In this document: positions 51,766-52,595 of the stretch, piece by piece
Layout of the letters: the number at the start of each line of letters is the position of its first letter
Position numbering within the stretch: position 1 is the stretch's first letter
From: Eledone cirrhosa
Taxonomy: Eukaryota
Length of the DNA stretch: 64,000 nt
NCBI GenBank assembly: GCA_964016885.1
Contig: OZ024759.1
Coordinates: 28,334,001 to 28,398,000 of the forward strand
Direction: 5' to 3'
Translations under genes and position numbers: made by a program
Notes under the pieces: model-generated
Database searches by the model: none
Told to the model about the DNA's origin: nothing
What the model saw: the letters and a program-made list of their open reading frames with translations, nothing else

Positions 51766-52427
51766 TTATACTTCTCTTAGGTCAGTGTTGTTTGTTTGGG
51801 TGTTGTTGTTGTTCCACTCATTCTTTCTGTTTAGCTTTGGTCTTCTAATTTCTATTTCACTGGCCTCTCTGATTTGCCTATCTGCTGGGTCATTCCTATG
51901 TTTAGATATTATTCTAATTTCTATGTTGTCTATGTTACCGTCATGATGTTGTCTAGCATGTTCGTATAGTACTGACCCGTTTTTTCGTCCTTTTAGTTCC
52001 CCCCAGTGTTGGTCTATCCTTTCACCTATGCTACGAGCTGTCTCACCTATGTATGTTGTTGTCGTGTTTCTGCAAGTACCCTCTGTACATCTTATGCTAT
52101 AGACTACGTTTCTAGTTTTACAGTTTATCCGGGGTTCACCTTACATATGATACATTTCCTATTGGTACAGTGGGTTTTCTTAAAAGGGTAGGTTTTGCTG
52201 ATCAGGGATTTTATGGTGGTTCCTGGTTTTTCTACCACCTTTATTTTTAAGTGGGTCTTTCTCAGGGCCTTTCTACACTGGTTAGCTAATTTCCCTCCAG
52301 GGGTGGCGTCCACAAACATGACACTCTGATATCTCTGGTTGTCGTACCATGATGTGGCCTTCCCTATCTTATGTCTAGCCCTATCTAAGCTATTCCATGA
52401 TTTGCTCCTGTATAGTGGGCAAATTCC
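51766..52427 (-). pseudogene. PLE RT-thumb/linker plus GIY-YIG endonuclease, with one frameshift near 52128
   Basis: Manual translation: GICPLYRSKSW..RARHKIGKATSWY..VMFVDATPGGKL...CTNRKCIIC...INCKTRNVVYSIRCTEGTC..TYIGETARSIGERIDQH...SVLYEHARQHH...DPADRQIREASEI...LNRKNEW..*. Confidence 0.92.
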
Positions 52428-52595
52428 TTTGGAATTTGCCCACTATACGCAAACGCATGCGCAAAGAAGACAAAATAAAATAAGATAAACAAACAAGCAA
52501 ATAAATAAATAAATATATAGACAGACTGAACAAAAAAAAAAAAAAAAATGGCGTAGACATACAACACAACAGGAGGAACAATGAATATAACACCA

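Follow-up and report, generated by a model that had tools for sequence, protein, structure and literature searches.

Organization of the Inverted Element

The window analysed here, a stretch of 64,000 nucleotides from Eledone cirrhosa, contained a 5'-truncated PLE lying between two (TA)n arrays, with its 3' pseudo-LTR repeated in inverted orientation beyond the truncation point. Its features, numbered along the window, were the following:

51214-51239, no strand: left (TA)n target array, overlapping the tail-less 3' end of the element
51236-51633, minus strand: direct 3' pseudo-LTR, without tail, identical at 398 of 398 positions to 52447-52844
51637-51645, plus strand: 9-nt word, likely annealing site, equal to 52409-52417; second copy at 51669-51677
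51769-52137, minus strand: C-terminal GIY-YIG endonuclease (VVY..C...C..YIG, later His), followed by the stop and the 3' UTR
52128-52430, minus strand: end of the RT thumb and short CX4CxxC linker (713 representatives at E<=0.001)
52410-52430, plus strand: native half of the hairpin and TTT loop, last letters of the putative left cDNA and 5' truncation point; other copies match up to 52430, then diverge
52431-52448, plus strand: non-native fold-back arm of 18 nt, with an in-frame TAG; its 3' end is CACTATAC
52447-52844, plus strand: inverted pseudo-LTR, beginning 6 nt past the 8-nt match
52596-52623, plus strand: hammerhead-core-like motif seen by eye (CTGACGA, 7-bp stem, GAAA), falling short of a complete ribozyme
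52845-52899, plus strand: 55-nt element tail, at the right end only (summed X1 contig depth of 618,470 at 52858-52895)
52900-52953, no strand: right (TA)n target array

The target-site duplication was not definable, the left (TA)n overlapping the 3' end of the element. Directly to the left of the insertion lay a tRNA-derived SINE-like repeat (50953-51213, tRNA match of 27.2 bits), a second copy of which was located at 9417-9558.

The 55-nt tail carried by the inverted arm had been overlooked in an earlier sequence-only reading of this stretch. The possibility that 52845-52899 was unique host DNA on the right flank was ruled out by its high copy number in contig run X1. The tail was continuous with the pseudo-LTR in other copies, where the variant at 52845 lay 51 letters from the contig end. 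An ATG at 52819 opened a frame of 27 codons running through the tail; judging from this frame, it is likely the start of the element's ORF, and these codons gave no significant match, including to the N-termini of the homologues. The tails of Penelope elements extend into the first ORF codons in the copies described in PMC3846280, and the available part of PMC8557442 gives the length of PLE tails as 30-40 bp, shorter than the 55 nt found here. The tail was absent at the left end and also at two related copies (56648-56685 and 56735-56932), which stopped at the same point in the (TA)n as the 3' pseudo-LTR. The segment 56648-56932 is made of two short 3' ends of the same family, 85-92% identical and arranged tail to tail over one (TA)n. 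A search of the pseudo-LTR region 52450-52895 with the Rfam hammerhead models gave no match, a trait common to other clades and not diagnostic for Naiad.

Coding Remnants and Family Identity

Two ORF pieces were separated by a frameshift at about 52128-52137, between the thumb and linker on one side and the endonuclease on the other. At position 52130, 442 of 916 RAD reads differed by one base. The endonuclease aligned pairwise to residues 784-897 of a 912-aa RT-EN protein (P0004) with an E value of 4e-19. It contained two internal cysteines and the CCHH motif (VVYSIRCTEGTC...YIGET, later His), matching by eye the rows of Fig. S2 in PMC8557442, and a linker zinc finger, CTNRKCIIC, was located upstream. 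Homologues of 888-944 aa aligned with both pieces at their C-terminus. Those at 40-45% identity bear an RT upstream, the RT core having been truncated away in this copy. Among the 28 homologues of at least 430 aa (156 were fetched), a YxDD-like motif was found upstream of the thumb and linker match in 26, and an endonuclease match downstream in 25, one of which was a short doubtful stretch. Pfam gave no match for the two ORF pieces or for four homologues, nor did a word-index search of longer proteins in which the endonuclease served as query, and tblastn detected no other coding remnants of the family in the 64-kb window.

The domain order corrects the sequence-only reading, which had assigned the element to the Naiad type. 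Similarities to Naiads exist: the (TA)n target, the inverted 5'-truncated copy, the tail, both motifs, CX2-5CxxC and CCHH, and the failure to find a complete hammerhead (PMC8557442, in the part available). Naiads, however, carry the endonuclease at the N-terminus and the RT at the C-terminus according to the same source, the reverse of the order seen here. Since the RT precedes a GIY-YIG domain that is itself C-terminal and followed by the stop and the UTR, a Naiad identity was ruled out. The KR-rich and CxC linker of Naiads between EN and RT was absent, and no ORF continued past the endonuclease.

The predicted domains make the element an EN+ PLE of the C-terminal kind, with a zinc finger in its linker. 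The pseudo-LTRs and optional one-sided tail of EN+ PLEs were represented by the 398-nt inverted repeat and the 55-nt tail, and the C-terminal EN and CX2-5CxxC linker of Nematis and Neptune were both found. Penelope and Poseidon, in which the linker finger is absent, were set aside because the finger is present; Hydra, which lacks CCHH and has a CxCX5C linker, was rejected as well. The succession of RT, linker zinc finger and GIY-YIG with two internal cysteines, in that order, and the (TA)n target are shared with Nematis and Neptune as presented in the accessible part of PMC8557442. By eye, the short linker resembled the Nematis rows of its Fig. S2, as well as PNL2_SM, and differed from the longer Neptune rows. 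The string PLYR had 0 occurrences in the supplementary file of that paper, where line breaks could hide a match.

Sequence of the Inverted Junction

The hairpin at the junction, described in the sequence-only reading as perfect over 18 bp with a TTT loop, was indeed made of exact reverse complements, 52410-52427 and 52431-52448, with TTT between them. The Watson-Crick pairing stopped at 18 bp without further extension. This hairpin exceeds chance expectation: folded as DNA, it reached -24.5 kcal/mol (z of -8.5) and none of 200 shuffles was equally stable, while in 300 Markov resamplings of the element (1195 nt) the longest stem reached 10 bp.

The 10,162 contigs of run X1 and the 489,602 reads of run X22 were aligned to 1256 bases of the element, leaving out 51640-51773 and 52461-52556; the (AC)n at 51632-51639 was outside the aligned stretch. 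The family is very abundant. Behind position 52430 the copies diverged from the present one in 25 X1 contigs (agreement 0.86) and in 30,576 X22 RAD reads (0.97). The family continuation begins with CATGTCC, and the present copy has GGAATTT instead. In the ORF frame the continuation had no stop and kept the register of the homologues before G-x-x-P-L-Y-R (by eye), whereas the outer arm of the hairpin puts a TAG into this frame. That the hairpin was simply part of the native family consensus, the test which the sequence-only reading had set for itself, was ruled out, as contigs and reads alike continue with CATGTCC. The TTT loop is native to the family, on the plus strand only. The first two fold-back letters, GG, are non-native, the family having CA after the TTT, so that no ready-made primer existed at that register for a fold-back. 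A native AAA/TTT mini-hairpin of 3 bp is unstable (+0.9 kcal/mol). An untemplated addition of G, a rare source variant, or priming by the AAA/TTT mini-hairpin followed by realignment would each fit as the origin of the GG.

The last eight letters of the fold-back arm, CACTATAC at 52441-52448, are the reverse complement of 51638-51645, as had been claimed. A fuller word of 9 nt (52409-52417), the longest common to the truncation point and the 3' region, has two copies in the latter. The absence of three AC units where the inverted pseudo-LTR resumes was also found as announced. As the identity of the arm (52447-52844 against 51633-51236, 398 of 398) begins only at 52447, it leaves a true overlap of 2 nt at the joint, with the six letters of (AC)3 missing and the 8-nt match 6 nt off the joint. 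A match of at least 8 nt anywhere in the element was available for 6 of the 55 possible flap lengths, and microhomology by itself is therefore not rare. By contrast with this, only 315 of the 203,232 pairs of flap end and landing point (0.16%, the pairs not being independent) had an 8-nt match ending at most 10 nt from the landing point: the microhomology is placed at the landing point more often than chance would have it.

Both arms carried letters that are in the minority in the family at 52646, 52650, 52652, 52685 and 52833, where 68-88% of the X1 depth differs. The sharing of these letters indicates that the arms came from one source.

The junction segment 52438-52479 had a depth of 0 in four of four runs, next to a bin with an X1 depth of 222,774, and none of the 15 joints listed, of 76, in the read and contig alignment fell at the junction. 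The hairpin junction itself is thus without read or contig confirmation; the sequence facts hold. The depth test is a weak one (three contig runs and one reduced-representation run from another sample), since contigs drop rare variants, 52461-52556 was left out, and only 0.55 of the words are present in the best run, which may therefore come from another individual.

A chimera of the assembly or of the library would account for a junction that found no support in the four runs, and inverted PLE units are hard to assemble (PMC8557442, available part). We consider it very improbable. Each arm has its own element-specific end point and its own flank, an overlap of 2-8 nt would not suffice for a k-mer misjoin, the left flank should be mirrored in a fold-back chimera, and the zero-depth runs have the weaknesses just listed. 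A second explanation, improbable too, is that the entire inverted unit, junction included, was copied from the transcript of an older locus that already carried it, the junction then being foreign to this insertion. PLE units are reported to be copied as complex tandem and inverted structures (PMC8557442, same part), but a multi-copy junction should show in contigs or reads, and the depth at 52438-52479 was zero in each of the four runs.

Other Repeats in the Window

A repeat family of 200 bp was present in five copies (3629-3846, 16260-16476, 31613-31801, 49455-49655 and 56369-56592), most of them flanked by (TA)n. Each contained, head to head, an inverted repeat some 50-60 bp long, along with a one-sided extension of 80 nt. 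The five copies had five different centres, and their arms tended to share copy-specific letters, with 0 to at least 6 mismatches. No ORF was found. The copies may represent a second PLE-like family in which fold-backs arose independently at almost the same position.

The unit 5325-6091, in (TA)n, contained partial tandem and inverted repeats and a one-sided extension in a PLE-like layout. Its inner joint showed a short overlap and no hairpin (by eye), and no homology to the proteins of the junction element's family was detected. Another repeat family was represented by 24898-25099 and 56170-56370, with a head-to-head inverted pair at 24909-25093. A type I hammerhead match was located at 55552-55596 on the minus strand (31.7 bits for a gathering score of 34, E value of 7.8e-05). 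The surrounding 400 bp, bounded by (TA)n arrays, probably represent another PLE's pseudo-LTR, or else a retrozyme. The Rfam miRNA matches over (TA)n were all below the gathering score and were dismissed. A 112-codon frame at 53664-54002 (minus strand) may be the C-terminal end of a restriction-endonuclease-type non-LTR element, which it resembles, and a 110-codon frame with a TINKAQGQT motif at 43750-44082 (plus strand) has some resemblance to a PIF1/Helitron helicase end. An assembly gap of 200 N occupied 35449-35648.

A Model for the Formation of the Junction

We propose, with a probability of about one half, that two separately target-primed cDNAs were joined by snap-back synthesis and microhomology within the (TA)n array. 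The polarity of the hairpin indicates which strand folded. No copy made by fold-back can begin past the point where the folding strand ends; the plus strand ends at 52430 and the copy starts at 52427, in keeping with this rule, which the minus strand fails. It follows that the plus strand folded and that the minus strand is excluded. The plus strand, whose priming was in the left (TA)n array, is antisense and corresponds to the cDNA. The fold-back of a cDNA put forward in the sequence-only reading is in agreement with the non-native arm and with a loop native on the plus strand only. The self-priming part of that proposal is not demonstrated at the level of single bases, the GG being non-native.

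The tail gives the second constraint. As the folded strand has no tail and the inverted arm has one, the folded strand alone cannot have templated the tailed arm. This weighs on the simplest scheme, in which a single cDNA folds back, extends by 18 nt, jumps forward on itself via the 8-nt match and is then copied as far as its start. The hairpin polarity, the non-native arm, the microhomology and the identity of the arms would all fit. The copy would, however, end at 52844, the mirror of 51236, and the arm has 55 nt more, the tail, so that a later trimming of the tail at the left end is required. Endonuclease-mediated resolution was suggested by Craig et al. as the origin of one-sided tails (PMC8557442, in the part available). 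We regard the single-cDNA scheme as quite unlikely. Of the template switch by 8-nt microhomology claimed earlier, the match at the landing point stands above chance, and it is the switch within the same cDNA that conflicts with a folded strand devoid of the 55-nt tail.

In the two-cDNA model, both (TA)n target strands would be nicked and primed. The first cDNA, the tail-less plus strand, would be extended over 1195 nt up to 52430. The second, on the minus strand, would start in the first codons of the ORF, which yields the tail, and about 450 nt would be copied, the template possibly being the upstream pseudo-LTR on the same transcript. The 3' ends of both cDNAs would be antisense and unable to pair with each other; the fold-back of the first would create a sense flap. 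An extension of 18-19 nt would produce this flap, whose last 8-9 nt would pair with the second cDNA, and the fill-in would slip over three AC units. Either a theta-type polymerase of the host or the RT would be a suitable enzyme for the fold-back, the pairing and the fill-in. Several of these steps have parallels. With purified Poseidon protein, cleavage and extension occur on both target strands, its RT starts at two sites bounding the tail, and the protein is predicted to be a dimer (PMC11167929, available part). Polymerase theta makes new microhomology for end joining by stem-loop extension (PMC11292364), and target-primed reverse transcription (TPRT) by R2 is followed by snap-back 5' junctions (PMC11371274).

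Several observations count against the two-cDNA model. It is based on one junction only, with zero depth at 52438-52479 in all four runs. The fold-back would have lacked a native 2-bp primer, and priming by the AAA/TTT mini-hairpin would need a realignment. The position of the 8-nt match, 6 nt off the real joint with its 2-nt overlap, makes an extra slippage step necessary. Two separately made cDNAs must agree over 398 nt, including a long T run. Finally, in the unrelated 200-bp inverted-repeat family, two of five copies showed the opposite polarity, with the longer arm folding (by eye).

A full palindrome with arms of ~1.2 kb could have been formed by fold-back and then shortened by a deletion between 9-nt words, ~780 nt of the right arm being lost and (AC)3 slipped. 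Such a history, which we hold to be rather unlikely, would leave the same letters at the joint and would explain the 398 of 398 identity directly. Long palindromes are unstable, which counts in its favour, and a small analogue at 31613-31801 in the window combined a short fold-back with a jump of about 24 nt (by eye). Microhomology deletions are common in Penelope copies (PMC3846280, in the part available). The tail-less folded strand would nevertheless require either that the tail was copied and then trimmed at the left, or a replicated-hairpin intermediate, and the deletion would have left the hairpin tip intact. A switch at the time of insertion and a later deletion would be written in the same letters, between which the junction sequence cannot distinguish. 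The junction had been presented as a base-level record of how the inversion forms; the sequence facts on which this was based hold, but a later deletion gives the same joint. If the later deletion were true, the junction would record repair, not insertion alone.

To return to the two-cDNA model, it may be carried one step further in a tentative form, for which the odds are low. In inverted PLE insertions, a dimeric RT-endonuclease would prime both target strands on one transcript, and the snap-back flap, by creating the missing complementarity, would weld the antisense ends. One of the two cDNAs would then come from the 3' pseudo-LTR; the other would begin at the start of the ORF and pass through the 5' pseudo-LTR, which would account for the one-sided tail.

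Comparison with Known Systems

Twin priming of L1 resembles the proposed scheme in the use of two primers on two target strands, in the inversion and in an inner joint that shows microhomology. The second primer of L1 is internal on the RNA and the inverted part is without duplication of the 3' end, whereas both ends are 3' ends here.

Inverted 5' copies and one-sided tails are standard in PLEs (PMC8557442, available part). The closest cases are Pen2 and Pen3a of Adineta vaga (PMC3846280), which, like the present element, are 5'-truncated head-to-head copies with inverted pseudo-LTRs and a one-sided tail extending the ORF. They have palindromes of 18 and 38 bp at the 5' end of the pseudo-LTR, for which self-priming was proposed. 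Palindromes at inverted junctions are described there as abundant in Penelope elements and read as self-priming. The self-priming of PMC3846280 takes place on an antisense template, and in the accessible portion of that paper the palindrome is set neither against the native sequence nor against a microhomology jump. In the present element the palindrome is not native, and the tail gives a reference for reading its polarity.

The snap-back at R2 TPRT (PMC11371274, PMC11204384) and theta-mediated end joining (PMC11292364) share with the junction a self-primed 3' end, a short inverted copy and the joining of the new end. In the stem-loop-templated form of the latter, the new end is joined by newly made microhomology (PMC11292364). 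In fold-back inversions of 5-34 bp at yeast breaks, a 3' end likewise primes on itself (PMC11724301, available part). In the R2, theta and yeast cases, as far as the available parts of these sources go, the flap joins the target DNA or the other break end, whereas its partner in the present case would be a second cDNA of the same element. In a literature covered mostly without subscription papers (early Penelope work included) or supplements, we found no account of snap-back with microhomology at a PLE junction, or of loop polarity compared with the tail side.

The junction is a clean single example of a structure already described, junction palindromes and self-priming having been published in PMC3846280. 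How the inverted structures of PLEs form is named as an open question in PMC8557442 and PMC11167929, in the parts available, and one junction settles nothing on this mechanism. If the dimer reading is true, the polarity of the hairpin loop relative to the tail side would be a genome-wide readout of the mechanism. A tally over many inverted copies of the strand on which the loop is native, the end that bears the tail and the microhomology of the flap would tell apart the models of one cDNA, two cDNAs and later deletion, with no need for an in vitro system.
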